DNA of 64,000 nt from an uncultured bacterium (GTDB lineage: Bacteria > Desulfobacterota_D > UBA1144 > Nemesobacterales > UBA2774), in NCBI GenBank assembly GCA_963825135.1, contig CAWGRW010000009.1, forward strand, positions 1,184,001 to 1,248,000, in the 5' to 3' direction. Within the stretch, counting starts at the first letter, position 1; each line of letters starts with the position of its first letter. A program made the position numbers and the translations under genes. The notes beneath the pieces are model-generated. The model searched no databases. It was not told the DNA's origin and saw only the letters and a list, made by a program, of their open reading frames with translations. This document shows, in pieces, positions 4,118-33,928 of this stretch.

Positions 4118-4154
4118 TTTTTACCCGGTACGCGCTGGTAAGTTGTAAGCTCCG

Positions 4155-4751: not shown

Positions 4752-4836
4752 TTCCGCCCGCCTTTATTTTTGAACGAACTGCGTTAATATTCTTACGTCG
4801 GCCCGGCTGACTATATGCCGTCCCACGAATTTTGAC

Positions 4837-5352: not shown

Positions 5353-5573
5353 ATTGAAGGGGTATACACCCTCACGGCGAGAATGAACTTAACTTTCCTC
5401 AATAACGAGAAATGTTTACTAGCCAACGGCCTCTCAAATATAGAAAATAAAATCAGCAGCCAACGCCGCGCACACCAAAACAGCGCCGCATTTTCAAAGT
5501 TTATTACTTTCTTCGTTATGTTATATTTCAGAAAACTTTGTTACTTGCCGGTCTCAAATTGGGAGATGAAACG

Positions 5574-6809
5574 ATGGGAAAGGTGAAGAAATCGGACGCC
5601 TCAACGCCCGAACCGTTCGTGCCGGACAAGGTCTTCTCGGCCGAAGCAAGCGTGAATAAAATCATTCCAAATGTTTTGAATTCCCCGCAAAAGTACATCC
5701 AGGGAGACGGTGTTCTGAACGATCTCGGACTATACCTCGGGCTAATCCACAGCAAGCACGCCGCCGTTCTGATCTCGGGAGGAGGGGAAAAAAGGTTCGG
5801 CGAGATGATAACACAAAGCTTAAAACGCTCGGGCATTGCCGGGACCCTCGTCACATTTTCCGGGGAGTGTTCTTTCGAGGAAATCGAGCGTGTGACTGAG
5901 TTATTGAGGAAAGTGAAAACGCCGGTCGATTCGGTTGTCGCGATCGGCGGAGGAAAGTGCCTCGATACGGGGAGGGGCGTGGCTCACCGCCTGTCCGTGC
6001 CCGCCGTCGTATGTCCGACGACCGCATCGACGGACGCCCCGTGCGCGGGCTTGTCGGCGATATATTTTTCTGACGGTAAATTTCGGGGCGTCGAGCTCTA
6101 TCCGCTCAACCCGGCCCTCGTGGTTGTCGACACGAGAATCGCCGCTCAGGCTCCCGTGCGTTTCATCGTATCCGGCATGGGCGATGCGATGGCTACATGG
6201 TATGAAGCGCGCACCTGTTACCAGAACCCGAAGGGCAAAGCTATACTGGGCACGCGCCCCACTATAGCCTCTGTCGCAATAGCCGAGCTATGTGCAACTA
6301 CTCTCTATGACCGCGGCGTTAAGGCTGTCGAAGCCGTAAGGGATTCGCAGGTAAATGAATCTGTCGAGCGTATTGTCGAGGCTAACACACTCATGAGCGG
6401 AATAGGATTCGAAAGCTGCGGTGTGGCCGCAGCACACTGTATCGCTCAGGGCCTTACGGTAATTCCCTCCCTTCACAAAAACTACCTCCACGGCGAAATG
6501 GTTGCGATCGGGCTGATGACGCATCTCGTTCTCGAGGGAAAAGACGACGAGGCCCATAAAGTCGGCGCTTTCTTTTCCAGTGTGGGCCTGCCGGCGCATC
6601 TGGGTCAGATGTCGTTAGACCCGGCGCAGGATATGGAGACACTCCGCAATATCGCCCGCGCCTCTGTTGACTTACCGTTCATTCACAACGAACCCTTCGA
6701 TGTTTCTGAAGACTCGCTGCTTGACGCCATGTTGAAGGCGCACAAGCTCGGCCTTGAAATTACCGAGTCATTCGGGGACGCCGCGTACTTATCCCTGCAC
6801 GGCAAGTAA
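5574..6809 (+). CDS. gldA: Glycerol dehydrogenase (iron-containing ADH family)
   Basis: SPQKYIQG, IGGGKCLD, PTTASTDAP, GMGDAMATWYEA, AAAH, HGEMVAIG; ATG at 5574 after GGGAG. Confidence 0.88.
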   Translation: MGKVKKSDASTPEPFVPDKVFSAEASVNKIIPNVLNSPQKYIQGDGVLNDLGLYLGLIHSKHAAVLISGGGEKRFGEMITQSLKRSGIAGTLVTFSGECSFEEIERVTELLRKVKTPVDSVVAIGGGKCLDTGRGVAHRLSVPAVVCPTTASTDAPCAGLSAIYFSDGKFRGVELYPLNPALVVVDTRIAAQAPVRFIVSGMGDAMATWYEARTCYQNPKGKAILGTRPTIASVAIAELCATTLYDRGVKAVEAVRDSQVNESVERIVEANTLMSGIGFESCGVAAAHCIAQGLTVIPSLHKNYLHGEMVAIGLMTHLVLEGKDDEAHKVGAFFSSVGLPAHLGQMSLDPAQDMETLRNIARASVDLPFIHNEPFDVSEDSLLDAMLKAHKLGLEITESFGDAAYLSLHGK

Positions 6810-6926
6810 TTGCAATCGCCTTTCTTACCCCAGGCTCAAGTGAATTTCTCAGAGATTCTATATCTTAAGCGTCGTATCGGCCCACTTTGCAACCCTTTCA
6901 TAACCATGGTAATGTAAACCTTATCA

Positions 6927-7313
6927 ATGGCCAGTGATCTGAAATTTGCACACCCTAAATACCTCCTTGTCCCCGTCATTGCTATATTTTTTATACTCTT
7001 TTCAGTCTCCCGGGACGAATCTCCCAACGTTGAATTCGTGAATGTCCCCTGCTCGAGCGCCGTCGTAGTGGCTCATGGCTTCGGGACGTCCTCGCTTTCT
7101 ACGGGACCGAGCGCGCCCGGAAATCAGTCTATGTTGAGTCTCGGTCAGACCGCCATTTTCAGCAAAAGCAGTCAGCTAGTCGGTCTTAACAGTCATAATC
7201 TTTTTTCATACAACGCCGATATGGACTTCCTTCGTATTTATGAGCGGGAAGTAAAATACGATTTAGTTATCTCAAGCAACACCGGCCGTTCCCCTCCTTT
7301 CTCAATTTCTTAA
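6927..7313 (+). CDS. Putative leader/arrest-peptide protein with N-terminal hydrophobic segment and C-terminal GRSPP motif
   Basis: ORF ends ...SSNTGRSPPFSIS directly upstream of the copper operon; architecture resembles DUF2946 (CruR/CutF) leaders but there is no CXXC. Confidence 0.55.
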   Translation: MASDLKFAHPKYLLVPVIAIFFILFSVSRDESPNVEFVNVPCSSAVVVAHGFGTSSLSTGPSAPGNQSMLSLGQTAIFSKSSQLVGLNSHNLFSYNADMDFLRIYEREVKYDLVISSNTGRSPPFSIS

Positions 7314-7404
7314 TCTCATTTTTTTCATCTCAAATAATAAGAAGTTGGCTGCGGAGAGATAGATTATTTCACCGCCGCGAATTATTGCGTAGAGGAGGAG
7401 TCCT

Positions 7405-8304
7405 ATGTTGCATATTAAATACAAATTACATCTGCTATGCGGAATCGCTTTTGTGCTGGTTTTAGTTTCAATGCCGGCGTCGTCCTGGCCTCACGGGTAT
7501 GCGGGCAAGCGTTTTTTCCCCACCACGCTATCGGTGGAAGACCCGTTCGTGTCAGACGAGTTTTCGTTTCTATTCGGGTATCTCAAAGAGGAGGAGGGCG
7601 AACAGAACTACGATCTCTCGGTCGAGTATTCCAAACGCATTACGCCGCACCTGGGTTTTGCGATTGAAGATTCGTACGAGTTTATAAAGGCTAAAGGAGA
7701 AAAAACACAGCACGGGTTTTCAAACCTTGGGCTGGGTCTTAAGTATCAGTTCCTAACGAACGCCCCGCACGAGGCCATCATGTCGATCGGTCTGGATGCC
7801 GAGATCGGGCACACGGGTGACAGCTCCGTTGACGCGGATGATTTCACGACGCTCGCCCCCGGATTATTCTTCGGGAAGGGGTTCGGCGACCTGCCGGAGA
7901 CGCTGAAATTCCTGAGGCCGCTCGCGATCACCGGAGTGATCGGCCCCGCGTTTACGATCGACAGCGAGGAGCCCGACGTGTTCGAATACGGGTTCACCCT
8001 CCAGTACAGTTTTCAGTACCTAGAGTCTTTCGTGAAGGATGTCGGACTCCCCGTGCCTTTGAACCGTATGATTCTGGTCGTTGAGTTCCCGTTCGAAACA
8101 GCACTGAACGAGGGCAGCGGCGGGGAGACGGAGGGCTTCATCAACCCCGGTATAATATGGTTCGGTAAATATATTCAGCTCGGGGTCGAGGCGCAGATTC
8201 CGGTCAACGACAACTCGGGCGACGGGGTCGGGGTCCTGGCCATTTTCCACGTATTCATCGATGACCTCTTCCCGAACAGTTTGGGGAGGCCTATTTTCAG
8301 ATAG
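7405..8304 (+). CDS. Outer-membrane beta-barrel/transporter protein associated with copCD
   Basis: Signal peptide then HGYAGKRFFPTTL; alternating beta-strand pattern; C-terminal DDLFPNSLGRPIF; strong RBS. Confidence 0.7.
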   Translation: MLHIKYKLHLLCGIAFVLVLVSMPASSWPHGYAGKRFFPTTLSVEDPFVSDEFSFLFGYLKEEEGEQNYDLSVEYSKRITPHLGFAIEDSYEFIKAKGEKTQHGFSNLGLGLKYQFLTNAPHEAIMSIGLDAEIGHTGDSSVDADDFTTLAPGLFFGKGFGDLPETLKFLRPLAITGVIGPAFTIDSEEPDVFEYGFTLQYSFQYLESFVKDVGLPVPLNRMILVVEFPFETALNEGSGGETEGFINPGIIWFGKYIQLGVEAQIPVNDNSGDGVGVLAIFHVFIDDLFPNSLGRPIFR

Positions 8305-8317
8305 GGGATCAGGAGCC

Positions 8318-8683
8318 ATGAAGAAGGTGTTAAACGTCATTATCCTGTCGTGTCTCGTGTACCTGGGCGTACAGACTGCGGCCCGGGGGCATGCGTTTCC
8401 CGATCATTCGGAACCCAGGGTAGGATCGACGGTAAGCGCTTCCCCGCCCGTGGCGCGTGTCTGGTTCGACAGCGAGCTCGAGGGCGAATTCAGCGAGATT
8501 CGGGTCGAGAACGCCGATTCGGAGCGGGTCGATAAGGGAGACGGGCACGTTGACGAATCCGATTCGAAGCTGCTCGAGGTCGACTTGCCGCCGCTAAAGC
8601 CCGGCACTTACCGTGTGACCTGGGCCGCCGTGTCGAGGGACGGTCACCGTACCGAGGGGAGTTATACGTTCACGGTCAAATGA
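8318..8683 (+). CDS. copC: Copper resistance/uptake periplasmic protein CopC
   Basis: Mature N-terminal HAFPDHSEP, GTYRVTW, DGHRTEGSYTFTV; AGGAG RBS before ATG 8318. Confidence 0.93.
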   Translation: MKKVLNVIILSCLVYLGVQTAARGHAFPDHSEPRVGSTVSASPPVARVWFDSELEGEFSEIRVENADSERVDKGDGHVDESDSKLLEVDLPPLKPGTYRVTWAAVSRDGHRTEGSYTFTVK

Positions 8684-8692
8684 GATGATACG

Positions 8693-9682
8693 ATGATACT
8701 GAATAAACTCGTCCACAGCGCGCCGACATTGTTCGACCTGTTCGCGCTGACCATCTGCATCGGCGCTCTTTCCTGCAGACTATGGGTGCTGCGTGTGACC
8801 GGCAATGTGCCGCACGATCGGGACGAGGGGCTGCTCCTGGCTAATGTGTGGAAGCTGCTTGGCGTCCTGGCCGCGATGCTTGTTTTAAGCAGCTCGATAC
8901 TTCTTCTTACGCGTACGGCCGAGATGAGCGGACTCCCTCTGACGGCCGGTTTCTCGGCCGTACCGAGGGTCTTGCTCAAGTCACATTACGGCCGGGTGTG
9001 GCTGTTACGCGTATCAGCCGTTGCCGTATTATGCACAGCATGGTTAATCGGCAGGGGAGATCTGTATGCGCGCCGGTATCCGATATGCATGTTTATTGCC
9101 GCTGCGGTTATAGCGGCAACCCGCAGCGCTTCGGGACACGCGGCGGACGCGGGGGATTTCAGCATGCCCGAGATTTCTGACTGGCTCCATCTGATGGCCG
9201 CGTCGATATGGGGAGGCGGTCTCATCGCGCTTTCTATCGCCGTTTTACCGATAGTATGGAGGGCGTCCGGAGAACGTCGAAAAAATATTGCGGACATCGC
9301 CGTCCGGTTCTCAGGCCTTGCCGGTATTGCGCTTGTCGCGATTGTAATAACCGCCGGATACAACGGATGGACCGAGGTGGGGAGTTTACGCGCCCTTTCG
9401 GAGACCGACTACGGAAAGATTATTATGGTCAAGATAATTCTCCTCGCCGCGCTCGTTATAGTCGCCGCGTCGAACCGCTACATCAGCATCCCGCGCATCA
9501 TGGGACAATCGGAATCTCGTCGTGGGAACGGCGGCGCGATCGCGTGGTTTATACGTAAGGTCGGGGCGGAAGCCGTTCTTATTCTGGCGCTTCTGGTGTG
9601 CACGGCGCTTCTTCTCCACAATATGCCGGCGAAACATCTTTCTCACGCCGGGCATGAGCACGTGCATGGTATCAAGAAATAA
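8693..9682 (+). CDS. copD: CopD family inner-membrane copper transporter
   Basis: SGHAA, WLHLMAASIWGGG, RFS, TDYG motifs; His-rich C-terminus. Confidence 0.9.
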   Translation: MILNKLVHSAPTLFDLFALTICIGALSCRLWVLRVTGNVPHDRDEGLLLANVWKLLGVLAAMLVLSSSILLLTRTAEMSGLPLTAGFSAVPRVLLKSHYGRVWLLRVSAVAVLCTAWLIGRGDLYARRYPICMFIAAAVIAATRSASGHAADAGDFSMPEISDWLHLMAASIWGGGLIALSIAVLPIVWRASGERRKNIADIAVRFSGLAGIALVAIVITAGYNGWTEVGSLRALSETDYGKIIMVKIILLAALVIVAASNRYISIPRIMGQSESRRGNGGAIAWFIRKVGAEAVLILALLVCTALLLHNMPAKHLSHAGHEHVHGIKK

Positions 9683-9780
9683 AAGACGATGGAGATGCGG
9701 ATGCCGTGACGAATACCGCTCTAAAATGGCAAGTGTTGGATTTGCAAAAAACAAACAAATTCTGGATAAAGGAGAGTAAA

Positions 9781-10215
9781 ATGAAAAAGTATCTATTGTC
9801 ACTTGCGGTTCTATTTGTTTTGACGGGTCTTTCCTTCGCGCAGAGCAAGGTCGTCGTTGAAGACGCATGGGTGGGGGAAGTGCCCCCTTCCTCTCCGGTT
9901 GCCGCGGCTTACATGACCATCAAGAATGAAGGCAATGCCGACGACAAGCTGCTCAGCGTTACGAGCAGTATTTCGGGAAGCTCTATGATACATCAGACCG
10001 TGATCGACGAGCAGAGCGTCGCGAAAATGGAGATGGTCGATGCGCTCGTTATCCCGGCGGGCAAGAGCGTCGTGCTCAAGCCGGGCGGCACCCATGTAAT
10101 GCTCATGGACCTGAAAGAACCGGTCACAGGTAAAGAGAAGATAGAGCTCGACCTCAAGTTCGAAAACGCCGGGGATATTAAGGTCGAAGCGCCGGTCAAG
10201 AGTCTCAGCAACTGA
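9781..10215 (+). CDS. Periplasmic copper chaperone PCu(A)C
   Basis: Signal peptide; AAYMTIxN, HxT...M, LKPGGTHVMLM motif. Confidence 0.92.
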   Translation: MKKYLLSLAVLFVLTGLSFAQSKVVVEDAWVGEVPPSSPVAAAYMTIKNEGNADDKLLSVTSSISGSSMIHQTVIDEQSVAKMEMVDALVIPAGKSVVLKPGGTHVMLMDLKEPVTGKEKIELDLKFENAGDIKVEAPVKSLSN

Positions 10216-10405
10216 GAGGTTCTGTATACGAAAGCCCCGATGGAATCTTTACCGCCTGAGGATAAAGACGGCTTAAGCATGGGATAGACGTATCGGGTTC
10301 GGATGAGGATTTCTGCCTGATAAGCGCGGCGTTGGCCTCCCCTGATGCCGCTGTGTTGTGCTATACTGCATATCAATCCGTATATGCATATAAAGGAGGT
10401 CTACT

Positions 10406-11354
10406 ATGGCGTCATCAGGCCGTTCAAAGAGCAGCGTAAATACCGAGGCATGGCCGAGCCTACCGCTCGATGAGTGGAAGGAAACATATGCGACCCTCCA
10501 CATGTGGACTCAGGTAGTCGGCAAGATCAGGTTCGCTCAGACCCCCTGGGTCAACCACTCGTGGCACGTGACGCTCTACGTGACGAGCCGCGGGCTCACG
10601 ACCTCGCCAATCCCCTACGGCGAGAAAACATTCGAGATCGATTTCGATTTTATAGACCACAGGCTCGTTATTGAGACGAGCGCCGGCGACGTCAGACATA
10701 TAGAGCTCCGCCCGCGCACGGTCGCCGATTTTTACGGGGAGGTCATGTCCACTCTGCGTGACCTCGGTCTCGACATACGCATTCATACACTGCCGAACGA
10801 GGTCGCCGATCCCGTCCCGTTCGAGAAAGACCTGCAGCACGCTTTCTATGATCCTGACTACGCCAACCGTTTCTGGCGCATATTAGTCCAAACGGACCGT
10901 GTGTTCAAGGAGTTCCGCGCGCGATTCATCGGCAAGTGCAGCCCCGTGCATTTCTTCTGGGGGAGCTTCGACATGGCGGTGACGCGCTTCTCCGGGCGGA
11001 CCGCTCCCCCGCATCCCGGAGGCGTGCCGCACCTCCCCGACGTGGTCGCGCGGGAAGCATACTCGCACGAGGTGAGCAGCTGCGGGTTCTGGCCGGGCGG
11101 CGGCCCCGTGCCCTATCCTGTTTTCTATTCGTACGCGTACCCGGCGCCCGAAGGGTTCAAGGATGCCGCCGTGAAACCGCCTGCCGCTTTCTACAGCGCA
11201 GACCTCGGGGAGTTCCTCCTTCCCTACGACGAGGTGAGAACGGTCCAAACGGCCCGACGACGTGCTCCTCGATTTCCTCCAGAGCACCTATGAGGCTGCA
11301 GCGGATCTCGCGAAGTGGGACCGCCCTGCGCTTGAGCGCGACAAGCTCCCGTAA
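10406..11354 (+). CDS. DUF5996 (Ava_C0101-like) protein, one frameshift near 11242
   Basis: TLHMWTQVVGK, VHFFWGSFD, REAYSHE; the expected C-terminus PDDVLLDFLQSTYEAAADLAKWDRPALER continues in another frame to TAA at 11354. Confidence 0.85.
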
Positions 11355-12606
11355 CGATTAAGAGAGACGACGAAGGCTGAGGGGTTTCAGCTTTTAATGG
11401 CGAAAGAAGCTCATGCCTTTTCTCCACGGAGGGTTTCCACAGCATCGGCAGAAATACGATCGCAAAAATAAGGAAAGACAGAATCCACAGGATTTGCGAA
11501 ACGGCGATCCAGAGCCCGTAATTGCCGCCGTCTATTAGCGGGAAGAACACCCTCACGATAGCCCCGGCGAGCAAGACCGTAAAAATCCAGAACACTATCC
11601 GGGGCGGCGCGAATACGTTCCTTCCGGTATGCCCCAGGATCACGCGGGACATGAAGCCGACCGTCATGATTCCGATCCCGCCGTATGTGAAGCTGTGAAG
11701 CGCGGGAAGCTCCGGGATATTGAAATAGAGGGAGAGGAATTTAAGGCCGAACCCTATCGCGATCCAGGCATAAGCGACGAACAGGACCCAGAGCATGGGT
11801 TTGTCCCATATCCCTTTTGAGTACCACCCGTATAACCTGACCGAATAGATCAGAGCGAGTATTCCCGAGATTATCGAAACGAATTTTCCGCTCGTAAAAA
11901 CGAGCTCCGGGAAGAAAAACAAAACGAAGAAGAAAACGCTCAGCATGTCGATGACTCTCCAGTTCCTGGGCTCGAATTTGAACCCGAAACCGTTCCTGAT
12001 AAAGAGGGGTATCATCATCCGGCCCATGAGCAGGATAATGGATATGACAAGGAATAGGGCCGAATATACGCCCCAGCGCTGGCCGTCCGTCAGTACCCCA
12101 AACACGCCGAGATAAAATATAACGTTGCTAACGGCTATCAGCCCAAGGTGAGCGGCGAGCGCCGTTTTCTCCCGGTCCATACCCCTTATTACCGGATACA
12201 ATGTTCTGATAGCGAGAATCAGAACAAACAGGCAATCGAGAATCGCCCCGGCCATCCAGGATATGTCCGTAATCAGGGTTAACGAGATAAACACCCTCGC
12301 GAGTATCCAGAGGGCAATCAATATAACGAGCGCGGATTTTTTACTTATCAGGGCCCCGAATCTGTACTTCTCAATCGTTAGCAGAAAACCGGCTATTACC
12401 GCTATTGTATAGCCGAACAGCATCTCGTGGGCATGCCACATAGTCGGGGAAATATTCTCGAAATTCAGCCTGAGCTTGAAGGTATAGAAGGCTGTCCACA
12501 ACGTCATATAGAACAACGATGACACCGTTGCCAGTATAAAAAACGGCCTGTAGGCGGATTCGAACATCGAGAAATTCCGGTCGCTGCTCGTTATTATTCG
12601 TTTCAA
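11224..12606 (-). CDS. nnrS: NnrS family haem-copper membrane protein
   Basis: YRPFF, WHAHEMLFGY, AGFLLT, RVILGHTGR motifs; start uncertain (12567-12702); 3' read-through past ~11400 may be an indel artefact. Confidence 0.88.
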   Translation of the reverse strand: MKRIITSSDRNFSMFESAYRPFFILATVSSLFYMTLWTAFYTFKLRLNFENISPTMWHAHEMLFGYTIAVIAGFLLTIEKYRFGALISKKSALVILIALWILARVFISLTLITDISWMAGAILDCLFVLILAIRTLYPVIRGMDREKTALAAHLGLIAVSNVIFYLGVFGVLTDGQRWGVYSALFLVISIILLMGRMMIPLFIRNGFGFKFEPRNWRVIDMLSVFFFVLFFFPELVFTSGKFVSIISGILALIYSVRLYGWYSKGIWDKPMLWVLFVAYAWIAIGFGLKFLSLYFNIPELPALHSFTYGGIGIMTVGFMSRVILGHTGRNVFAPPRIVFWIFTVLLAGAIVRVFFPLIDGGNYGLWIAVSQILWILSFLIFAIVFLPMLWKPSVEKRHELLSPLKAETPQPSSSLLIVTGACRAQAQGGPTSRDPLQPHRCSGGNRGARRRAVWTVLTSS

Positions 12607-12817
12607 CTTAAACCCCGTGTTCGTAGCAAGTGAGCACTCACTCAATATCTTACGTGCCCGGCTTCGCCTGTAAAGTCTCATGTGTGATTCTCGGCCAATC
12701 ATCGTTAGTCGGCCGATAAGCTGCCGCCGGTGCGGGAATCTCGGGCGTCAACTGGTATACTAGAAATATAAACTTTAAGAAGCTCACCCACAAAATACTC
12801 TCAATGCAGGAGGAACA

Positions 12818-13243
12818 ATGAAAAGAAACGGTTCTGCGGTATGGAAAGGAGACCTCAAAAGCGGTCAGGGTACGGTATCGACAGAGAGCGGCGTGCTCTC
12901 CGACACTCAGTATTCGTTCAAGACCCGTTTTGAAGACGGGAAGGGCACTAATCCCGAAGAGCTGATCGCCGCGGCACACGCGGGCTGTTTCTCTATGGCG
13001 CTCTCCTCAGAGCTGGGCAAGCTCGGTGCGACCGCCGAGAGTATCAGGACGACGGCTACGCTCTCTTTCGAAAAAACGGACGCGGGGTTTACGATTACGG
13101 CCATTCATCTGAATACGAAGGCCAAGGTGCCCGGGGCGGATAAAGCGACGTTCGATAAGGCCGCTGATAACGCGAAGAAGGGCTGCCCCGTTTCCCGTGT
13201 CCTCAACGCCCAGATCACACTCGACGCGACGCTCGAGAGCTGA
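12818..13243 (+). CDS. osmC: OsmC family peroxiredoxin
   Basis: [20 protein letters not shown] and CPVSR catalytic cysteines. Confidence 0.96.
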
Positions 13244-13303
13244 GAGTAACAGCCCGGCGCTATTGCCGTGATATTTTGATATATACGGTAAGGTCGGAAA
13301 GGA

Positions 13304-13337
13304 CACTTTGACTCCCCTGTGTAGCGGAGTCAAAGTG
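13304..13337. terminator. Hairpin between convergent genes (possible bidirectional terminator)
   Basis: 12-bp perfect stem CACTTTGACTCC/GGAGTCAAAGTG with 10-nt loop. Confidence 0.55.
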
Positions 13338-13357
13338 CGTTTTATAATTCCCGGGAT

Positions 13358-13732
13358 TTACCAAAGCCCTTGTATCGCTACACCGTTGTGCGCCGTCACA
13401 ACCTTGCACTTCCCCGCCCATTCTACCAATGCGCCTATGTCTGTCCACTCTTTCGGTGCCCTCTTCCAATGATCGTCGAGGCCAGCCTGTTTCTCGTACA
13501 ACTCGTCCAAAACGAACATAGTGTTGCCCGTCGGCGCCGAGGTCGGATCCAAAGGATTCGCCAGTTCCGGCCCTTTGATGATGTTATAACGAAGCATCGC
13601 TAATTCGCCCGTCCTGTGATGCGTCGCCTCCATCCATTTAGCGTGGCTTGCGAAAATTCTCTCTCCCTCGGCTACATGCTCCTTGGGGCATATAAACGTA
13701 ATGGTAATCTGTGTTTTGCCTATAGTAGACAT
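13358..13732 (-). CDS. Hypothetical protein (possible dimeric alpha/beta barrel)
   Basis: AGGAGG RBS before ATG 13732; FVLDELYE...GLDDHW pattern reminiscent of ABM-like proteins. Confidence 0.6.
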   Translation of the reverse strand: MSTIGKTQITITFICPKEHVAEGERIFASHAKWMEATHHRTGELAMLRYNIIKGPELANPLDPTSAPTGNTMFVLDELYEKQAGLDDHWKRAPKEWTDIGALVEWAGKCKVVTAHNGVAIQGLW

Positions 13733-13987
13733 ATACACACCTCCTTAATAGGTTTTTTGATTATTCTTATATATACGTCGAGCAAAGTAATACGGTTTGC
13801 CCGAATCATACCGGTATATATGTACATACAACACAAATTGAGCTTATTTGTCAATGAGCAGCCTGTAGGAATCGTGAAGCGAAATCATTACAATCGGTTG
13901 GTCGAAATTTTAGAGAGTTGATTATTGTGAATACCGGTAAGCTTAAACCGGTCAAAATCATCTCCGGAATAGCGGGCCCGTGAAGAA

Positions 13988-15532
13988 TTAATCCTCTCTT
14001 AAGAACAGATACAAGGTTATTTGATTGTTAGTGTCATCCCTTCTTGGCTTACCGTGCTTACGCGTATCGGGAAATTCTTTTTTCTCTATGATTCGGTAAG
14101 GCGCATATCCGGAGTTCAATAAGAATTCGCGGAATTCTTCCGGCAGAGGATATGGCTTTTCTCTAACGACTACCCATATCCGATTATTATCTGACACACA
14201 TCCGTCCAGTTCGTTTTTGATCTCCTCAGCATCAGTAAGGCGTTTTTTTATGAGGCACGGCTTCAGATTGCCCCGGTAGTACCAGTTAAAATCGTCGTAG
14301 ACCTGGCCGCTGGTATCATCCGGAAATACGATTGCGTCGTTTGTCTTCCCCTGATTCCCGACATAGGCCGCGACCTCTCTCCACTGCTCGCGGACGGGCT
14401 CTACGTAGAATTGATGGAGGCCCGGAACAATGAGGATAAGATAGGCTGCGAAGGTTATTCCCAATGGCACGACTTTCCCCATCTTTACCAAGACGAGCGC
14501 GATCAGGATGTAAAAAGCCGGCGATGAACAGCTCACATATCTATGAAGGTACATCGGCTTTATAAATTCAGATAACAGGAAAGGCGTTAATATTGGGAAT
14601 ATCAGCCAAACGGCTACCAGCAGCGTTTCACGTTTATGGCCGTTCAGGTTCATTAAATTCTCCGGGAGGGATTTGAGCGAGGCGAGCCACCGCTCGGCTC
14701 CGACATACCGTGCAAAAAGAAAGGTGGCTAGAACGAAGAAGAGGAGAGCGGCCGCAATTGTCATCGGGGAGGGGTAATCGAGCCCTGATCCGACATACTG
14801 CATAAGAGTCATTAACGGCATCCACGGTGGGGGCGCCGGTATCCAATTCGGGCCGATGCCCCCGGCGGCGGCGTCGTGTAAACTGGATAGAATGGAGGGA
14901 AGTATCCCCGCCAGGATAATTGCCTGGCTGAGGAACCACCGCGGGATAAGTCCCTTCATGGATCTGACGCATACGACAAAATAAATGCCCTGCGCGGCAA
15001 TTATAAGCAACCCGAAATCGTGCGTGTAATAGAGGAGTACCGTGGATAATGAATACAATAAGAAATAGAGGAGCCTTCTTTTTCCAAGTGCATTGATATA
15101 AAAATAGAAACTAAGAAGTGTCAACAATACGAAGAGACTGTAGTAACGCAGATCTTGAGAATAATATATTTGATATTGGGAAACGGCCATCAGGAGGGCG
15201 CTCACGAGGCCTATTTTTTCATCGAACAGCGCTTTCCCGACACAATAAATTAAAGGTATGGATATCGTTCCGAGAAGCGCGGGCAGCATCCTTGTCGCGG
15301 CCTCGGAGGTCCCGAAGAGAGCTATCCAGAAGTGAGCGAGTATCACGAATAACGGCGGTCTGCCGCCCAATAATATGGAACCGAGGTCTCCCCGGGCGAC
15401 CCGGAGCATAATAATTTCATCGTGCCAGTAGCTCTCGCCGCTAAGGTCATAAATCCTCAGTACTGCTGACAGGACAACGATGAGAAGTAATAAGTAATAG
15501 CCGCTATATTTTGCTTTACAAACAGTATTCAT
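13988..15532 (-). CDS. GT-C fold glycosyltransferase (family 39/PMT_2, ArnT-like)
   Basis: LRIYDLSGESYWHDE, PPLF, YSQDLRYYSL; many TM helices. Confidence 0.88.
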   Translation of the reverse strand: MNTVCKAKYSGYYLLLLIVVLSAVLRIYDLSGESYWHDEIIMLRVARGDLGSILLGGRPPLFVILAHFWIALFGTSEAATRMLPALLGTISIPLIYCVGKALFDEKIGLVSALLMAVSQYQIYYSQDLRYYSLFVLLTLLSFYFYINALGKRRLLYFLLYSLSTVLLYYTHDFGLLIIAAQGIYFVVCVRSMKGLIPRWFLSQAIILAGILPSILSSLHDAAAGGIGPNWIPAPPPWMPLMTLMQYVGSGLDYPSPMTIAAALLFFVLATFLFARYVGAERWLASLKSLPENLMNLNGHKRETLLVAVWLIFPILTPFLLSEFIKPMYLHRYVSCSSPAFYILIALVLVKMGKVVPLGITFAAYLILIVPGLHQFYVEPVREQWREVAAYVGNQGKTNDAIVFPDDTSGQVYDDFNWYYRGNLKPCLIKKRLTDAEEIKNELDGCVSDNNRIWVVVREKPYPLPEEFREFLLNSGYAPYRIIEKKEFPDTRKHGKPRRDDTNNQITLYLFLRED

Positions 15533-15592
15533 AACCTCTAAAGACCCCTGCTTTGTACGCTTCGAATAAATATCCCAATATTTATTCGGGAT

Positions 15593-16570
15593 TCATATTA
15601 AACCGTTTGCTTCGTACCATTCATATGTTTTTTTCAGCCCTGTCCTTAAATCTGTCTTGGGTTGGAAACCCAGCTCCCTTTTCGCTTTTGATATATCAAA
15701 AGCCCTGTTACTTCTGAAGAATTCAATCCTCCTTGGATATATGGGCGGATTTATATTCAGCGGTTTAAACGCCCATTCGCAAGTTTTAGCAAGGTAGTAA
15801 ACCGGGAGAAATGGCAAACGGAAACCTGGAATATTTACACCAAGAATATTTGAAATAATTGATACAAGCGCGTTGAGCTTCACAAATTCATCAGATCCAA
15901 GAATATATATATTCCCTGCTGCTTCCTCCCTCTTTCCGCATAGAAGAATGCCTTCTATCAGATCATCGATATAAATCATATGATATTGCACATCGCCGGA
16001 GCCTAACATTACGAAATAACGTTTTTTTATCGCCCGGAAAAGCTTCAAAAATCTGAGATCTCCGGGGCCATAAATACCGCAAGGCCGAAAAATTACTATG
16101 GGCAATTTATTTTCTCTTGAGTACCCGGAAACTATTCGCTCGCCTTCGACTTTGGAAAGTTGGTAATCATCCTTAGGCGAGAAGTGGGAATTCTCATCGG
16201 CAGAGGCCGTTAAAACAGACCCATGAACCCCTACGGTGCTGCAATGAACAAATCTCTTAACCCCTTCCTCAAAAGCGGCTTTCAGTATATTCTTGGTACC
16301 GGTTACATTAGTTTCGAATAGATCCTTTTTATTCAGGTTATCACGCCAGGCCGCAGCGAGATTAAAAACAATATCAATCCCGATCATAGCTCTTTGAAGG
16401 GAGTAGAAATCCCTTAGATCCCCGATCGCCGTTTCGAAGCCTTTCGTTTTGAGTTGCTCTGCTTTTTGCGGATTTCTGACAAGGGCTCTAACGGTATAGC
16501 CATCGTATTGCAGGCGTTCGCAAAGATTACTGCCTAAAAAACCCGTGGCGCCGGTAACTAACACTTTCAT
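15593..16570 (-). CDS. NAD-dependent epimerase/dehydratase
   Basis: VTGATGFLG, YxxSK (YQLSK), RPCGIYGPGD. Confidence 0.92.
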   Translation of the reverse strand: MKVLVTGATGFLGSNLCERLQYDGYTVRALVRNPQKAEQLKTKGFETAIGDLRDFYSLQRAMIGIDIVFNLAAAWRDNLNKKDLFETNVTGTKNILKAAFEEGVKRFVHCSTVGVHGSVLTASADENSHFSPKDDYQLSKVEGERIVSGYSRENKLPIVIFRPCGIYGPGDLRFLKLFRAIKKRYFVMLGSGDVQYHMIYIDDLIEGILLCGKREEAAGNIYILGSDEFVKLNALVSIISNILGVNIPGFRLPFLPVYYLAKTCEWAFKPLNINPPIYPRRIEFFRSNRAFDISKAKRELGFQPKTDLRTGLKKTYEWYEANGLI

Positions 16571-24421: not shown

Positions 24422-24864
24422 TTTATCTTGATTGCTCCCGATTTGAAAGTGCGGGGGGTCGCGGGGTCGAATTCCGGCATGAGACGATCCCTCTTGAGCT
24501 ATACATGGTAATCACTTGCGGGAAAAGACTCGCGCGGACTTAACTAATGCTGAATATTGAGTGAAACGATGGCGGGCTTGGAGGAACGCAAAACCCTTCC
24601 GAATCGAATCAAACCCGCTGCCCGCATAAGGGGACATACAACTCCGCGCCCGCCCGGAATCGCACCAGGTGTACTCGGCGAATTCCCTACTTACGGGTCA
24701 CAAATCGTAAGGCTCAAGGGACAGGTCAGCTTGCTGATTAATCCGGTGTCTGTTGGCAGAAGTCTCCGGATCGTACGGCCTCTTAGACGTTATGCCGGTC
24801 GTTGTAAACACGCCGGCAGTCGGTTACCTTCACTTTTAAGTAATGCCAAAACTGGAGGTAAATC

Positions 24865-26552: not shown

Positions 26553-26597
26553 GGATTCCTGATCCCGGAGTCGGAGGTTCGAGCCCTCCCGGGGACG
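26553..26597 (+). other. 3' half of a tRNA-Arg(CCT) gene (att-site scar)
   Basis: GGA-TTCCTGA-TCCCG, T arm GGAGG-TTCGAGC-CCTCC, acceptor strand CGGGGAC-G; no D arm or 5' acceptor strand upstream. Confidence 0.75.
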
Positions 26598-26638
26598 CAA
26601 TGGTCTAATGTAGTTACAGCGCCCCGGGAGTGAATGAA

Positions 26639-26740: not shown

Positions 26741-26977
26741 AAATATGTAAAACCTGACTTAAATCATGGACCTCTTACAGGGGAGCAGGACGGAGAACTG
26801 GTCTTGACACGGGGCTCTTTTTTTGAGATAGTAGGACTAGAAAAGGTTCATGCGTAAAATGGATTTATTTTGTTGCGGGCACGAAAGTTAGCATAGTAGT
26901 TTTTGCGGAATCTTTAGTACTTGGCCCGTCCAAATGACTGTCGTTCCGATGACATTAACACAATAAAGGAGAATGCC

Positions 26978-27295
26978 ATGAAGTACATGATCAGCTGGTT
27001 CGAGCGCCCGCAAGGTTCGCCTGCGGAGTACGAGAACGCCCAGAAGCGCATACTCGAAGTGTTCACTCAATGGAAGGCGCCCGACAATTTCAATATCGAA
27101 TTGTTCGTAGTGCGGGTCGGTGAGTGGGGCGGGCATTTGTTGGTGGACTGCGACGATCCCCTGGCTATTCACAAATTTTGTTCGACCTGGCCTGCTTTCG
27201 AATTCCAGGCACGGCCCGTGATTCCCGTGGAGGACGCTGTCCGCGTCGAGCTCGAGGCTATGGCCTGGCGGGATAGTCTGAAGAAAGGCAAATAA
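26978..27295 (+). CDS. DUF3303 family protein
   Basis: MKYMISW...WKAP...GEWGG...PVIPVEDA; AAGGAG RBS before ATG 26978. Confidence 0.8.
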   Translation: MKYMISWFERPQGSPAEYENAQKRILEVFTQWKAPDNFNIELFVVRVGEWGGHLLVDCDDPLAIHKFCSTWPAFEFQARPVIPVEDAVRVELEAMAWRDSLKKGK

Positions 27296-28022: not shown

Positions 28023-28071
28023 CAATGGCGGGCGATGGGGGACTCGAACCCCCGGCCTCAGGCTTCGGAGG
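28023..28071 (-). repeat. 49-bp direct repeat of the tRNA-Arg(CCG) 3' end (att site)
   Basis: CAATGGCGGGCGATGGGGGACTCGAACCCCCGGCCTCAGGCTTCGGAGG identical to 30281-30329. Confidence 0.95.
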
Positions 28072-28270
28072 ACGCGAGCAAACTAGTAAAGCGTAATATA
28101 CATTCGTATTGAATCTCAGCAATCACAGAATGTTGAGTTGTTTTTCTACGCAACACCAATTTATACAGAATGGTGAATAACGGCACAATATGGACACTTA
28201 TATGGACACTTCCATTTTAATGCGTGGCCGAGCTTATGGTGTACTTACGCCAGATGTCCTTCACCACTCG

Positions 28271-28984
28271 TTATGCTGCGTTGTCGTTTGGTGTAACCAT
28301 GCAAAGAAACGCAACCCTTTTGTAAAAGGCCAAAACCCAAGCACTCATTGTATCGTGGCCTTGAACCCGTTGAAACCAATATGCAAAGACGTTTTCACCG
28401 AACACATTCGGTGAATTTCGTGTCACCTTATCGAAGATGTCAAGGACCCGCACCGTGGCATCGGAGTCGATGTTTGTAAGGCCCGCCGCAGAATAAGCGG
28501 TGACGTGAAAGTATTCGGGAATACGTTTGCCAAATTCGTGGAAATACAAACCGGTTGTGATTCTTGCGGCCACACGATCGAGACGGGAGAGATCGACATC
28601 ATATCCAGGTGCAGTTCCGAGGTAGATTCCACCAGCAGATAAGAGATCAAGATTACCCATGCTATTGAAGAATGCTTGCTGGAATCCCTTCTTCGATGGT
28701 TTTTGTAGGGATCGGTAGATCGAAGGCAGAATTGCTTTGACGGCGGGATGATCACCTGTATCGTGGCGCATGGAAATCACGAGCCGGAAGTATTCGTCGT
28801 CTCTGGATGCACCTTCGTTGCAAGATCGGCAACTGGGAACAGTGATCAGATTCGACGGTCTCGGTTTCGGAAAGAGAGTTTTCGGCGGAATGTGATCGTC
28901 GGTCAACGCTTCCGCACTACCGCAATAAACGCAAAAATAATTCGTAACATTGGGTCCGTCATATGTGTTGACTACCATTTTCAT
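28271..28984 (-). CDS. HNH endonuclease domain protein (Zn-binding)
   Basis: CVYCG...TDDHIPPK...NLITVPSCRSCN motif at the N-terminus. Confidence 0.85.
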   Translation of the reverse strand: MKMVVNTYDGPNVTNYFCVYCGSAEALTDDHIPPKTLFPKPRPSNLITVPSCRSCNEGASRDDEYFRLVISMRHDTGDHPAVKAILPSIYRSLQKPSKKGFQQAFFNSMGNLDLLSAGGIYLGTAPGYDVDLSRLDRVAARITTGLYFHEFGKRIPEYFHVTAYSAAGLTNIDSDATVRVLDIFDKVTRNSPNVFGENVFAYWFQRVQGHDTMSAWVLAFYKRVAFLCMVTPNDNAA

Positions 28985-30011
28985 ACTCTTGATCTATCTC
29001 TCCTAATAGTTCTAAAATATATGAATGTTTGTTAGATAAAAAGCTTGCGAAAATATAAGCATCTTTTTCAGACAAGGTACTCTTCTCGCCGTCTTCAAAG
29101 AAGGATTCAAGCTTTCTAATTGGATAGAGAACGTCGTCTATACCGTGGATAAATACATCGTTTGCGGGATATTCTCCTCTTTCTTTGAGCTTTTCTATTA
29201 GCTTGTTGTAACGATCATGAATAAGCTTCAAGCAAATAGCCCCAATCTTCCTATTTGAAGTTGTAAGAATGCCATCAAATACCTTTTCAAATTCGTAACT
29301 CATACCATGAGGGAGCAAGTTGACCAATTTTTCCATGCGAAACTTCTCCTTGTGTGCTTTCTCTTCCGCTTCCAATCTGCCCGTTAACGTGAACAGAATC
29401 GAGGAAATATATTTTCTTTGCTCGGCTACCCATCTAGGAATGTTGATGTCCCTATGCTCGGAGGTGCCATCGATGTAAAAAGAAAAGATACTAAAGCCGG
29501 CCGGACCCAGCGACGCTCTTGAGATATAATGATAGGAGATAGGCTTCGATTTTGTCTTGGCCCGTTTTGTGGGATGTCCAACAGCATCGTTCCGTATCCT
29601 ACGAATCTCTAATAGTATTGGGTAGTTGTTAATCTTCTCTGAAATTGCAAGCGATTCGCAAAGATTGTCAACTGCATCTTGCTGGACATACATTGCTTGG
29701 AGAAGCCCATAGACCGTAAGGTAGTAAACTGCCGTGCTATCTCCAAACTCCTTTGCCTCGAAAGCGGTAATCGCTTCTTCCGTGTCTCCGATCACATCAA
29801 GCGAACTGCAAAGTTGAGAAAACAACGGTTTGTTCTGTCGTAACTCATAATGCATTCGCGGATCGTTTATATGCTCGCGAATTTGTTTTATCCGGTTTTG
29901 AACTGGATTCACGTTTTCAGCCCTATCTTTGTGAGAGACGTTAAATATTTCTAAGCGCTTTACTTGCTGATTATACGAAATATTTCCATCTAACCAGATT
30001 AAGAATAACAA
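28959..30011 (-). CDS. Helical protein with HEPN-like RxxxxxH motif
   Basis: IRRIRNDAVGHPT motif preceded by LQAMYVQQDA; alternative GTG start at 29912; overlaps the HNH gene by 26 bp. Confidence 0.7.
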   Translation of the reverse strand: MLFLIWLDGNISYNQQVKRLEIFNVSHKDRAENVNPVQNRIKQIREHINDPRMHYELRQNKPLFSQLCSSLDVIGDTEEAITAFEAKEFGDSTAVYYLTVYGLLQAMYVQQDAVDNLCESLAISEKINNYPILLEIRRIRNDAVGHPTKRAKTKSKPISYHYISRASLGPAGFSIFSFYIDGTSEHRDINIPRWVAEQRKYISSILFTLTGRLEAEEKAHKEKFRMEKLVNLLPHGMSYEFEKVFDGILTTSNRKIGAICLKLIHDRYNKLIEKLKERGEYPANDVFIHGIDDVLYPIRKLESFFEDGEKSTLSEKDAYIFASFLSNKHSYILELLGEIDQEYENGSQHI

Positions 30012-30283
30012 AATTTGTAGATTTTATCTAACGTCTGTTATCTCTTTATAAGCTTTTCATGATAAGCCTGTGATAGTAGCGGACATTCCATATGGATGTA
30101 TTGATAGATGACATGGATGGTACGCGCTCAGGCGGTTCTATAAGCCGTCATCATCAATAGTGTGTATCGATAGATATACGACATGTGAATTGTGGACGCC
30201 CTGCGTGGACACTAGTATTAATATCACCACCCTCGTGTAAACAAAATACTCGATGTAATTAACTCTAAGCATTGAAAAAACAA

Positions 30284-30359
30284 TGGCGGGCGATGGGGGA
30301 CTCGAACCCCCGGCCTCAGGCTTCGGAGGCCTGCGCTCTATCCACTGAGCTAATCGCCC
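30284..30359 (-). tRNA. tRNA-Arg(CCG)
   Basis: GGGCGAT-TA-GCTC-AGTGGATA-GAGC-G-CAGGC-CTCCGAA-GCCTG-AGGCC-GGGGG-TTCGAGT-CCCCC-ATCGCCC-G-CCA; complete 76-nt cloverleaf. Confidence 0.97.
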
Positions 30360-31152
30360 GGTTTTGAGATTCCAAGCTCCTTCATCACTACCTGCATATC
30401 TTCCCAGAGCGGCTTCTTGAAATTCGGGTTCCTGAGAAGGGCCGCAGGATGATAAGTTACCATAAGTTTCGCCCTTCCGTATTGATGGAACTTCCCCCGG
30501 AGGCTCCCGAGGCTCTGCTTCGTTTTAAGTATGGACTGCGCGGCCGTGCTCCCTAGGCACACTACGACCCCGGGCTCTATCGACCTTATCTGCTTGAATA
30601 GGAACTGCTCGCAGGTCGCCATCTCGTCGGGCTCTGGAGTCCTGTTCTCGGGCGGGCGGCACTTCACCACGTTGCATATATATACGTCCTCTCTCTTTAG
30701 CCCCATCGCCTCTATTATCTTGGTGAGGAGCTGTCCCGACCTCCCCACGAACGGCGTCCCTGCAGGTCCTCGTCCCTCCCCGGCCCTTCCCCCACGAATA
30801 CGAGCCTCGCCTTCGGGTTCCCTTCCCCGAACACCAGATTCGTCCTCCCCTCGTGGAGCTTGCACCGGGTGCAGTCCCCTATCTCCGCCCTTATCTCTTC
30901 GAGCGTCATCTTTTTAGCGGAGGCGTCGAATATGCCGATCTGCTCTTCTATTCTTATAACGTCGTCCTTTTTTTCGGGTGATGTCTGAGCTTTTGGTTGC
31001 GTCCTCACGGGTTCTTTCCCGGGCGCCTTCGGGATGGTCTCTTCCTTGGCCTTTTTTTCCACCGGCGCCCTCGCGACTCCCATGGATTTCTCAAATTCGA
31101 GACGCCTCTTCAAGTCCTCGATGATCCCTTTCAGCTCTGATTCACGGCTCAT
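30350..31152 (-). CDS. Uracil-DNA glycosylase family 4, one frameshift near 30759
   Basis: CTRCKLH, FVGEGPGRDED in one frame; PFVGRSG, NVVKCRPPENR, TYHPAALL in the next; G-run indel. Confidence 0.92.
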
Positions 31153-31436: not shown

Positions 31437-33928
31437 ATGAAAGAGAGTTATAAACCGGAAGAAATAGAAAAAAAGTGGCGGGACATATGGGACGAGAGGA
31501 AGCTGTACGAGGTCCGGGCGGAGAAGGGACCGTGAGAAGTACTACGTGCTCGAGATGTTCCCTTACCCCTCGGGCCGCATACACATGGGCCACGTCAGGA
31601 ACTACACCATCGGGGACGTCGTCGCCCGGTATAAGCGCACGCGCGGGTATAACGTGCTCCATCCTATCGGGTGGGACGCGTTCGGGCTCCCTGCGGAGAA
31701 CGCTGCTATCGCCCGGGGCGTGCACCCCGCCGTGTGGACCTACGACAACATCGCGCAGATGAAGGCGCAGTTAAAACAGCTCGGGTTCAGCTACGACTGG
31801 ACGAGAGAGATCGCCACCTGCGACCCGTCCTATTATAAATGGGAGCAGATGGTATTCACCCGTATGTACGCGAAGGGGCTCGCCTACCGGAGATCGACGA
31901 CCGTCAACTGGTGCCCGTCGTGCGAGACCGTGCTCGCGAACGAGCAGGTGGAGGACGGGCTCTGCTGGCGCTGCGGTTCCACAGTGGAATTAAAGGTGAT
32001 GGACGGGTGGTTTTTCAAGACGACTGAATATACCGAGGAGCTCCTCGAATGGACCGAAAAGCTGAAAGAAGGCTGGCCCGAAAGGGTCCTCGCCATGCAG
32101 AAGAACTGGATCGGGAAGAGCACCGGAGCCGAAATAGATTTTCCGCTCGAAGAAACCGTTGGCGGTGAGAGCGGTCTCAGCATATTCACGACGCGCCCCG
32201 ACACCGTATTCGGCGTCACGTATATGAGCATCGCGCCCGAGCACCCGCTCGCGGCTGAGTTGATAAAAGGGAAGTCTCAGGAAAAGGAAGCGCTCAAGTT
32301 CATAAAACGAGTCACGAAACAGAGCAGCCTCGAACGGATAGCGGAAGGAGCGAAGAAAGAAGGCGTCTTCACGGGAGCTTTCGCCATAAACCCTTTCAAC
32401 GGTCTGCGCGTCCCGATATACATAGCCAACTTCGTGCTCGTCGAGTACGGGACCGGAATAATCATGTGCGTCCCCGCTCACGACCAGAGGGACTTCGAGT
32501 TCGCAAGGGAGTACGGGCTTCCTATCGTTCCCGTGATAGAACCCGAAGGGACTAAGCTCCGTGCGGAAGATATGACCGGAGGCATACGAAGACCCCGGAG
32601 TTATGACGAATTCAGGGCAGTTCACCGGCCTCCCTTCGGAAGAAGGGCAAGGAGAAGGTAATAGAATATATAGAGGAAAAGGGTATAGGCAAAAGAAGGG
32701 TCAATTACAGGCTCAGGGACTGGGGCATTTCGCGCCAACGTTACTGGGGCGCGCCAATTCCGATCGTCTATTGCGATAAGTGCGGCGTCGTTCCCGTTCC
32801 CGACGAAGACCTCCCCGTAGAGCTTCCGCTCGACATAAAATTCACGGGGAAGGGCGGGTCGCCGTTGGCTAAGGCCAAGAGCTTCGTCAACACCGTCTGC
32901 CCCAAGTGCGGCGGCAAGGCGAAGCGCGAGACAGACACCATGGACACGTTCGTCGAGTCCTCCTGGTACTTCCTCAGGTACGCGTCCCCTCATTACGGCG
33001 AAGGCATGTTCGATAAAAAGGAGGTCGGGTACTGGCTCCCCGTGGACAGGTACATCGGCGGTATCGAGCACGCGATACTGCATCTGCTCTACGCGAGGTT
33101 CTACACGAAGGTGCTCCGGGACTTGGGCATGTGCGCTCTCGACGAGCCCTTCACTAACCTCCTCACGCAGGGGATGGTCATAAAGGACGGGGCCAAGATG
33201 TCGAAGTCCGTCGGCAACATCGTAGACCCGGACGACATGATAAAGAAATACGGGGCCGACACGGTGAGGCTCTTCATGCTCTTCGCCGCCCCCGTGCAGA
33301 AGGACCTCGACTGGAGCGACGAGGGGATAGAAGGGGCGTTCAGGTTTTTAAACAGGCTCTGGCGCCTCGTCTCCGACAGGTTCCCTGCAATCGAAAGCCT
33401 CAAGGGCAAAGCCCCGGACGCGAGTAAGATATCCGTCTCCGGCAGGGACCTTCTGACCAAGGTGCATAAGACTATAAAGAAGGTTACGGACGACCTCGAA
33501 AAATTTCAGTTCAATACTGCTATCGCCGCCGTCATGGAGCTTCTTAACGATACGTCCCGCATCGACACCCGCCGGAGACGAGGACGTAAAGGTGGTGAGG
33601 GAGTCGGTCGAGGCCATGGTGAGGCTCCTTTACCCGATAGCTCCCGCACGTGTCGGAGGAGCTCTGGAATGAGCTCGGATATGAGGGGTTGCTCGTCGAT
33701 GAGCCCTGGCTCGAGTGGAATAGAGAGCTCGTGGCCGGAGCCGCGATCACCGTGGTCGTTCAGGTGAACGGGAAGGTGAGGGCCCAGCTCTCGATGGACG
33801 CGGACGTAAGCGACGAAGCGATGAAAGAGGCCGCGTTCGCCGACGAAAAGGTCAGGGGCTATCTCGCCGGAAAAGAGCCCAGGAAGGTGTTCGTAGTCCC
33901 CAAAAAGATTGTAAATATAGTAGTTTAG
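31437..33928 (+). CDS. leuS: Leucine--tRNA ligase, five apparent single-base frameshifts
   Basis: [64 protein letters not shown]; frame breaks near 31530, 32578, 32646, 33570, 33643. Confidence 0.96.

Follow-up and report, generated by a model that had tools for sequence, protein, structure and literature searches.

A HEPN-like gene and a predicted HNH nuclease gene in a small tRNA-Arg islet: two candidate solo families and an apparent cassette-fusion scar

Two overlapping genes, one for a HEPN-like protein (gene A) and one for a predicted zinc-binding HNH nuclease (gene B), are the only cargo of a small islet at a tRNA gene of an uncultured Desulfobacterota_D bacterium. Do they form one anti-phage system, or have two separate genes come to lie side by side? 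A sequence-only reading of the window (the whole stretch analysed, 64,000 nucleotides of contig CAWGRW010000009.1, here C9) had proposed a two-gene RNase plus DNase system. The islet, the two proteins, their relatives and the junction between the genes were examined.

The islet at the tRNA-Arg(CCG) gene

The islet lies at a tRNA-Arg(CCG) gene on the minus strand (30284-30359; ARAGORN; Rfam tRNA 73 bits), which is its integration target; the Rfam scan matched the tRNA only and no other RNA family. Two 49-bp direct repeats, 100% identical and spaced 2258 bp apart, form its att cores on the minus strand. The tRNA-proximal copy (30281-30329) is the 3′ 49 bp of the tRNA gene region and the distal copy lies at 28023-28071. 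This 2.26-kb unit has a GC content of 43%, against 56% for the flanking genes, with 41% in gene A and 48% in gene B. As had been read from the sequence, A and B are its sole cargo and the only long minus-strand ORFs between the two repeats. Gene A (28959-29912, minus strand, open frame to 30011) encodes a 317-aa protein and gene B (28271-28984, minus strand) a protein of 235-237 aa, depending on whether the in-frame ATG at 28984 or that at 28978 is used. In the ORF listing they overlap by 26 bp at 28959-28984.

Each end of the islet contains a paired GTGTCCAY repeat that is found nowhere else in the 3.13-Mb assembly. The tRNA-proximal pair, GTGTCCAC / GCGTCCAC (30192-30212, minus strand), found by a paired-motif search of the assembly, is degenerate. 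The distal pair, GTGTCCAT-x4-GTGTCCAT (28190-28209), is part of the distal end of the element (28155-28260, minus strand), which has matches of 76-89% in four relatives (G003, G004, G006 and G007). The same pair is found in relatives, where it overlaps tRNA-linked tyrosine integrases at their 3′ end and, in several relatives, lies ~115-135 bp ahead of tRNA 3′ repeats. Because of this placement we infer that the pairs are arm-type sites of an integrase. A duplicated tRNA 3′ end with such putative arm-type repeats at both ends places the islet among tRNA-targeting elements. No integrase ORF or remnant was detected in the islet by tblastn, and none of the five integrase-like loci elsewhere in the genome has the same arm pair. 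With exact att cores and arm pairs kept at both ends, mobilisation in trans is conceivable. The islet resembles the defective or domesticated tRNA-integrated elements described in the available text of PMC13626063, which have lost integration genes and kept host-useful cargo, but differs from them in retaining exact att cores and both arm pairs in only 2.26 kb.

The same tRNA gene holds other units. On contig C7 of the same assembly (L001, 4491-10015), a locus which looks like a sister-strain haplotype, three different att-bounded units lie at tRNA-Arg(CCG): a 3-dmu-9_3-mt/VOC-like gene (649 bp), a ThsB-like TIR gene (912 bp) and a fragmented Upx (3.9 kb). The ThsB-like TIR gene and the broken Upx bear out the earlier suggestion that such a tRNA site is a defence hotspot. 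Twenty of the ~36 relatives with the locus were inspected (G003-G036; L192-L211), chosen partly for visible extra repeats and thus not at random; 12 of the 20 had extra tRNA repeats downstream of tRNA-Arg(CCG). These delimit stacks of small units, 20 in all (0.5-8.4 kb) and each closed by a tRNA 3′ repeat, whose cargo includes genes for restriction-modification, efflux and metabolism. Only one of the 20 carries an integrase (G020); the same unit has UmuCD, SRAP and a primase-like gene. In some cases unit ends are common to different genomes.

Further tRNA traces lie nearby in the window. A relic 3′ half of a tRNA-Arg(CCT) at 26553-26600 (plus strand), 83% identical to the gene at C9:368257-368331, probably marks a former att site, and at 24564-24596 there is a weaker tRNA-like fragment. 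Between a cupin gene and the relic is a 124-aa ORF (26921-27295, minus strand) that has no Pfam match.

Proteins A and B as candidate nucleases

The long ORF of gene A (28959-30011, minus strand) could begin at TTG 30011. GTG 29912 is the most likely start, because it is where homologues begin and because the first 43 residues of the long ORF lack conservation; residues are numbered here on this 317-aa form. The monomer model (pLDDT 92) consists of an N-terminal helical domain with a beta insert (1-190) and a C-terminal four-helix bundle (190-312). Its N-terminal part is composed of helices 28-52, 60-87 and 98-110, a loop with H113, the beta insert and helix 158-190.

The R-x5-H motif that had been noticed in the upstream helical protein, IRRIRNDAVGHPT, is present and conserved in homologues. 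It corresponds to R107-N108-x4-H113 (29574-29594, minus strand), which in the model spans the end of helix 98-110 and the loop behind it. R107 and H113 are invariant in 112 aligned sequences. In 145 further representatives of 50% clusters, R107 is found in 143, N108 in 120 and H113 in 145; position 108 is otherwise H (11), S (5) or T (3). The acidic residues D39 (141/145), D43 (143/145) and D79 (131/145) are conserved, and so are Q72, Q77 and Q78. HEPN proteins are described in PMC3710099, as far as its available text goes, as having Rx4-6H where helix 3 ends, with a polar residue behind the R and conserved acidic residues upstream. Protein A has a conserved Rx4-6H followed by a polar residue, and the placement of the motif, at the end of the third long helix and the following loop, fits that description.

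Homodimer prediction gave an ipSAE of 0.70 for A, against 0.00 for the best of three controls, with at least 69% of contacts agreeing between runs and pLDDT of at least 85; the mark used is reached by 20 of 30 solved homodimers and by 1 of 23 single chains. The predicted interface is wholly N-terminal (residues 28-86 and 111-116) and includes H113; R107 is absent from its listed residues. Protein A is thus predicted to homodimerise via its motif-bearing N-terminal domain, like HEPN RNases.

The full-length model retrieved no HEPN structure in the fold searches (PDB Foldseek, VIA wide, VIA second look and viral), whose lists were filled by generic four-helix bundles aligned to residues ~185-315, and sequence searches against the PDB gave no match. 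No Pfam, NCBIfam or PADLOC (2023) model reached its cut-off for A. The Pfam model HEPN_AbiU2 matched members of the family at E 0.02-0.04, below cut-off, in 2 of 112 and 2 of 47 proteins. With hhalign the match probability was below 5%, profile support being limited to the motif, and the A profile gave motif-only alignments or none with single AbiU2-, Cthe_2314- and TPR-HEPN-type proteins. Support for A as a HEPN protein comes from the motif at the helix end and the predicted homodimer, and the fold searches with the full-length model added none; on these data we think it quite likely that A is a HEPN-type RNase. It shares Rx4-6H where helix 3 ends, and upstream acidic residues, with AbiU2, Cthe_2314, LA2681 and the integron-cassette HEPN 3jrt, as these are described in PMC3710099. 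In contrast to those families, no tested member of A reached the cut-off of a Pfam HEPN model, and A looks like a family separate from the HEPN families tested.

The A family is large, with 351 matches at 90% clustering and 2566 clusters at 50% identity (E≤1e-3); the ESM Atlas returned unnamed clusters only. A few A-family fusions of 445-818 aa exist and none of the five scanned carries HNH. None of the longer or fused forms of 619-2000 aa scored, which counts as weak evidence. Several variants of the architecture were seen. A shorter relative of ~230-250 aa, which consists of the N-terminal domain alone and bears an RNK-I-G-(A/S)-H-S motif, is present in this family (G002, G005, G012, G024, G093 and G094; L219-L225), and Atlas clusters of 186-203 aa suggest the same short form. 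In G078 (L218) the N-terminal domain of A is fused behind a RecG-C-terminal-like HATPase_c_4 domain, and in P0370 full-length A stands behind DUF7669 in one protein.

In protein B the zinc-binding HNH motif (CVYC..DHIPP..CRSCN) was present as had been read, in ORF 28271-28984 (minus strand), with its residues conserved in homologues. The core C18-x2-C21, D30-H31 and C52-x2-C55-N56 maps to 28817-28933 (minus strand). Among 114 sequences D30 is conserved in 112, H31 in 114, N56 in 110 and the four cysteines in 110-113. A DH...N core with CxxC/CxxC zinc ligands, kept at this level, places B among HNH (His-Me finger) proteins and argues for an HNH-type nuclease, as had been suggested. Its score against Pfam HNH, 21.0 bits, is just under the 21.4 cut-off. 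The model (pLDDT 92) has an uncharacterised alpha/beta C-terminal domain, and fold searches with the full-length model returned no specific match to a solved HNH protein. Metagenomes hold at least 538 relatives, for which library models match the HNH core only. Residues 14-60, the HNH core, match Septu PtuB and PADLOC PDC-M01B (E 5e-7 to 7e-4). B differs from both in that the match is to the core only, the C-terminal domain is different and there is no ATPase or fixed partner. Septu is not indicated at this locus: the islet has no ATPase, A has no PADLOC match and no PtuA is present among 120 immediate neighbours of B homologues. By eye, two proteins in the available part of the DefensePredictor supplement, among its predicted novel defence genes, resemble B.

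The statement that the two genes match no named system was upheld, as neither protein was matched over its length by PADLOC, Pfam or NCBIfam models. In the openly accessible papers searched, none was found that describes a HEPN and HNH two-gene system of such form.

Separate distribution, attC-like sites and the junction

The neighbourhoods of both families were compared. For A, the best 80 of 136 relatives in GTDB genomes were taken (27-53% identity, flanks up to 7 kb), a sample that leaves out the closest full-length homologues (70-79%, P0004-P0010); for B, the best 80 of at least 538 metagenomic relatives (34-82% identity). Each set contains a few near-duplicate loci. The B profile matched at none of the 80 A loci at E≤0.01 (68 with at least 1 kb and 57 with at least 3 kb downstream), and a looser search gave four noise-level matches (E 0.04-0.4). 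The A profile had no match at the 80 B loci, of which 71 extend upstream by at least 300 bp and 47 by at least 1 kb; these 80 include the five closest loci (72-82% identity). Clustering of 1256 flanking ORFs revealed no fixed partner for A or for B; the largest clusters reached 7 loci and resemble restriction-modification, integrase or generic genes.

Among 120 genomes of the phylum, A matched in 14 and B in 17 (11 of these at the HNH core only). Besides the host genome, only G067 has both families. There the A and B homologues are distant and divergent, A is truncated and a DUF4238 gene lies between; a comparison of B with the DUF4238 protein gave no match. Among 72,556 plasmids A matched in one and B in 17. 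The record in common, NC_008738.1, carries a distant B and then A, in the order B..A with two ORFs between. Viral contigs had no A and one B locus, without A. An A-B operon is thus present in one of 120 phylum genomes, that of the host, and the fusion is found nowhere else in the 160 loci. A conserved two-gene RNase plus DNase system, as the sequence-only reading had it, is not supported: homologues were adjacent at none of the 80 A and none of the 80 B loci, and the two co-locations elsewhere involve distant homologues in a non-operon arrangement.

The two families instead share an association with attC-like sites. Many attC-like hairpins were seen behind the stop codons. Among loci with enough sequence, our own simple detector, which misses some sites visible by eye, called such a site just downstream of A at 11 of 78 and of B at 13 of 70 (9 of 68 when about four B calls, doubtful duplicates, are set aside). 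The controls gave 14 of 600 own-genome gene ends and 3 of 240 and 4 of 240 in-gene windows (Fisher, p 3e-5 for A and 4e-7 for B). About 80-85% of homologues have no attC by this detector. On NC_008738.1 an attC-like hairpin stands behind each of A and B, one being a detector call and the others read by eye. In such loci A and B are independent attC-bounded units. The region of that record (3000-15963, L291; a plasmid of the cultured Marinobacter nauticus VT8) is an array of attC-bounded hypothetical genes beside a SIR2-family gene, with A and the distant B included.

The window itself has no complete attC, only core remnants, and no attC cluster was found in the own genome. The integron integrase (TIGR02249) is absent from the host genome (G000) and from all 32 family relatives; it is present in 5 of 120 phylum genomes. 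With no integron integrase in the host or its family relatives, an array stage and the fusion would fall in another host, before capture.

The 26-bp overlap was confirmed at 28959-28984; however, analysis of the junction marks it as derived and not as a feature of either family. A GTCAACA core-like site followed by CAT-ATG lies at 28960-28972 (minus strand), as delimited by the end of a DNA match, close B loci and short reads. G050 has a broken copy of A with 88% identity over 313 nt; this similarity stops exactly at GTTAACA in G050 versus GTCAACA in the window. In G050 the TAA of this site is the stop of A, and B is not behind it; in the window a CAA codon stands there and A reads through. 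Close protein homologues of A terminate at about the same point. On the other side, the five closest B loci start 3-4 nt past a GTTRRRY-like core, and in 16 of the 17 closest B proteins a Met stands exactly 10 residues ahead of the first Cys. The window has an ATG at 28962 in this native position, after the core, where it overlaps the new TGA of A (ATGA). Since it is 29 nt, rather than 30 nt, before the Cys codon, it opens a frame of only 19 codons, and the frame of B can be entered only at ATG 28984 or 28978, both inside A.

Downstream of B, a remnant inverse core (GCATAAC-GA; 28268-28276, minus strand) covers the stop codon and the rest of the attC is missing. The DNA match of B to a close locus (L083) ends three bases past the stop, in TAACGA at 28268, which leaves ~8 bp before the element's conserved end; beyond that point L083 has a full attC-like hairpin.

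A short-read contig of run X1 (depth 2-4 pieces) spans 28866-29016 with 0 differences, and the junction is accordingly real DNA. An assembly indel ahead of the first Cys of B had been suspected because C9 has frameshifted housekeeping neighbours that are intact on C7, and was ruled out by this exact match. The neighbours concerned are a uracil-DNA glycosylase-like gene (30350-31152) and leuS (31546-33928), named from their translations; their frameshifts point to indel errors in the contig.

The simplest history that the junction sequence suggests is loss of the attC between adjacent cassettes, read-through of the A stop and a 1-bp deletion, in any order. The overlap thus looks like a fusion scar. 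Cassettes fused by partial or total loss of attC are known from the available text of PMC4670013 to be co-transcribed and to move as one unit. The A-B case is like these in that attC loss would unite two cassettes; those fusions concern resistance genes in class 1 integrons, whereas A-B is reconstructed from its junction, encodes putative nucleases and lies in a tRNA islet.

Origin and possible roles of the two genes

The reading that we consider somewhat better than even is that A and B are unrelated stand-alone cassette-type genes, each probably a single-gene anti-phage nuclease, which were fused and then captured by an integrase-less tRNA-Arg(CCG) element. Their separate distribution, attC-like sites of their own and the lack of a conserved partner argue against one new two-part system. 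A also differs from B in GC content (41% versus 48%), in keeping with separate genes. A and B would have been neighbours in a cassette array of another host, the attC between them would have been lost, and the fused pair would have been taken up by an integrative element which targets tRNA-Arg(CCG) and keeps its att cores and arm sites without an integrase.

Defence genes are enriched around A. Among the 128 immediate neighbours of A, 14 had PADLOC matches (E≤1e-20), compared with 3 of 132 control genes (p 0.005). For B they numbered 9 of 120 against the same 3 of 132, which is not significant (p 0.07). Since the control is the host genome alone and the gene calls are heuristic, the enrichment around A is supportive only. 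In L119 and L125 the gene immediately ahead of the B homologue is a 2TM 'Effector' (PADLOC PDLC00702); other B homologues adjoin Gabija, BREX and type IIG restriction genes.

By analogy, HepS is the best working model for A. HepS, as described in the available text of PMC13043305, and A are both single genes with an Rx4-6H motif and no co-occurring partner or inhibitor; the HepS oligomer joins its motifs, and the predicted dimer of A may do so. HepS is prophage-borne, tetrameric and experimentally tested, whereas A is cassette- or islet-borne and known here from sequence and model. A further differs in its Rx5H, its C-terminal four-helix bundle, the lack of sequence or fold matches to PDB entries and its presence in 0 viral contigs. 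HepS is triggered by a phage tail-tip protein (PMC13043305). A would accordingly be pictured as a HEPN-type RNase dimer, inactive at rest without an antitoxin, with the C-terminal bundle as a sensor or brake. A phage product would switch it on, and active A would cleave RNA, with tRNA the likeliest target by analogy with HepS, so that the infected cell is arrested. B would be a zinc-stabilised HNH DNase in which substrate choice falls to the C-terminal domain. Lacking a methyltransferase partner, it probably depends on modification or is activated by a trigger. A and B would work independently of each other in the host strain, where the out-of-frame native start of B may keep its translation low.

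Solo defences of this type have been described. In the available text of 10.1101/2024.07.02.601686, the Vibrio integron genes Esos (HEPN-like), Taranis (AbiJ-like HEPN), Sirona and Nemetona (both HNH-like) protect against phage, and in that of 10.64898/2026.03.17.712381 the AbiU2-type cassette HNPBCG_15845 is a single-gene phage defence with an attC. Compared by description only, all of these are, like A and B, single-gene HEPN- or HNH-like attC cassettes; unlike the Vibrio cassettes, A and B in this islet are fused and lie outside any integron. A or B may be one of the recently validated solo systems.

It is unlikely that the islet is a decaying relic, that is, a grounded remnant with cargo nearing silence or lacking a defence role. 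Such decay would agree with the loss of the ancestral start of A, whose upstream region is out of frame with the homologue starts, with the frameshifted native start of B (29 nt to the first Cys codon, 19-codon frame), with the degenerate arm sites at one end and no integrase left, with promoter-like sites at chance level (7 versus 4.8 ± 2.4) and with the broken state of the nearby G050 copy of A. Both frames are however intact over their full conserved length with all predicted catalytic residues and in-frame starts present, and the 100% identity of the att cores suggests recent insertion. A module in the making, in which attC loss and stop read-through gave a coupled operon selected here as a unit that expresses RNase and DNase from one promoter, is still less probable. 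It would explain why the stop of A falls exactly on the native ATG of B (ATGA), a classic coupling geometry, and why the pair, both genes intact, is the sole cargo; fused cassettes elsewhere are co-transcribed and move as one unit (PMC4670013, available text). Yet the coupled ATG is 1 bp out of frame in the host strain, as confirmed by independent reads, and the fusion is confined to the own genome among 120 phylum genomes and 160 loci. A conserved two-gene RNase plus DNase system or toxin-antitoxin pair, suggested by overlapping co-directional genes as sole cargo and by families within ~2 kb of each other in G067 and NC_008738.1, is very improbable and largely refuted by the 0/80 and 0/80 neighbourhoods, the divergent G067 arrangement with DUF4238 between and A truncated, the reversed plasmid order with two ORFs between and the attC-like site that each gene has in many loci.

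Were a two-gene module caught at birth, one functional RNase plus DNase unit on a minimal non-autonomous tRNA islet movable by a helper integrase (improbable, as stated for the coupled operon), the tRNA-Arg(CCG) site would be a stack of small integrase-less cargo units in this lineage. On the favoured reading of two unrelated cassette-type genes, what is new here is two undescribed solo candidate families and a cassette-fusion scar, not a new two-gene system. A belongs to a large family of 2566 clusters without a model in the searched libraries, and B has at least 538 relatives with core-only matches; both are cheap single-gene candidates for anti-phage tests. In A, a HEPN-like protein with an unfamiliar C-terminal bundle, the trigger would be mappable. 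In the junction one can follow, base by base, the way in which unrelated cassettes can give rise to an overlapping 'operon', which is a caution for guilt-by-association mining and a possible route to multi-gene systems.
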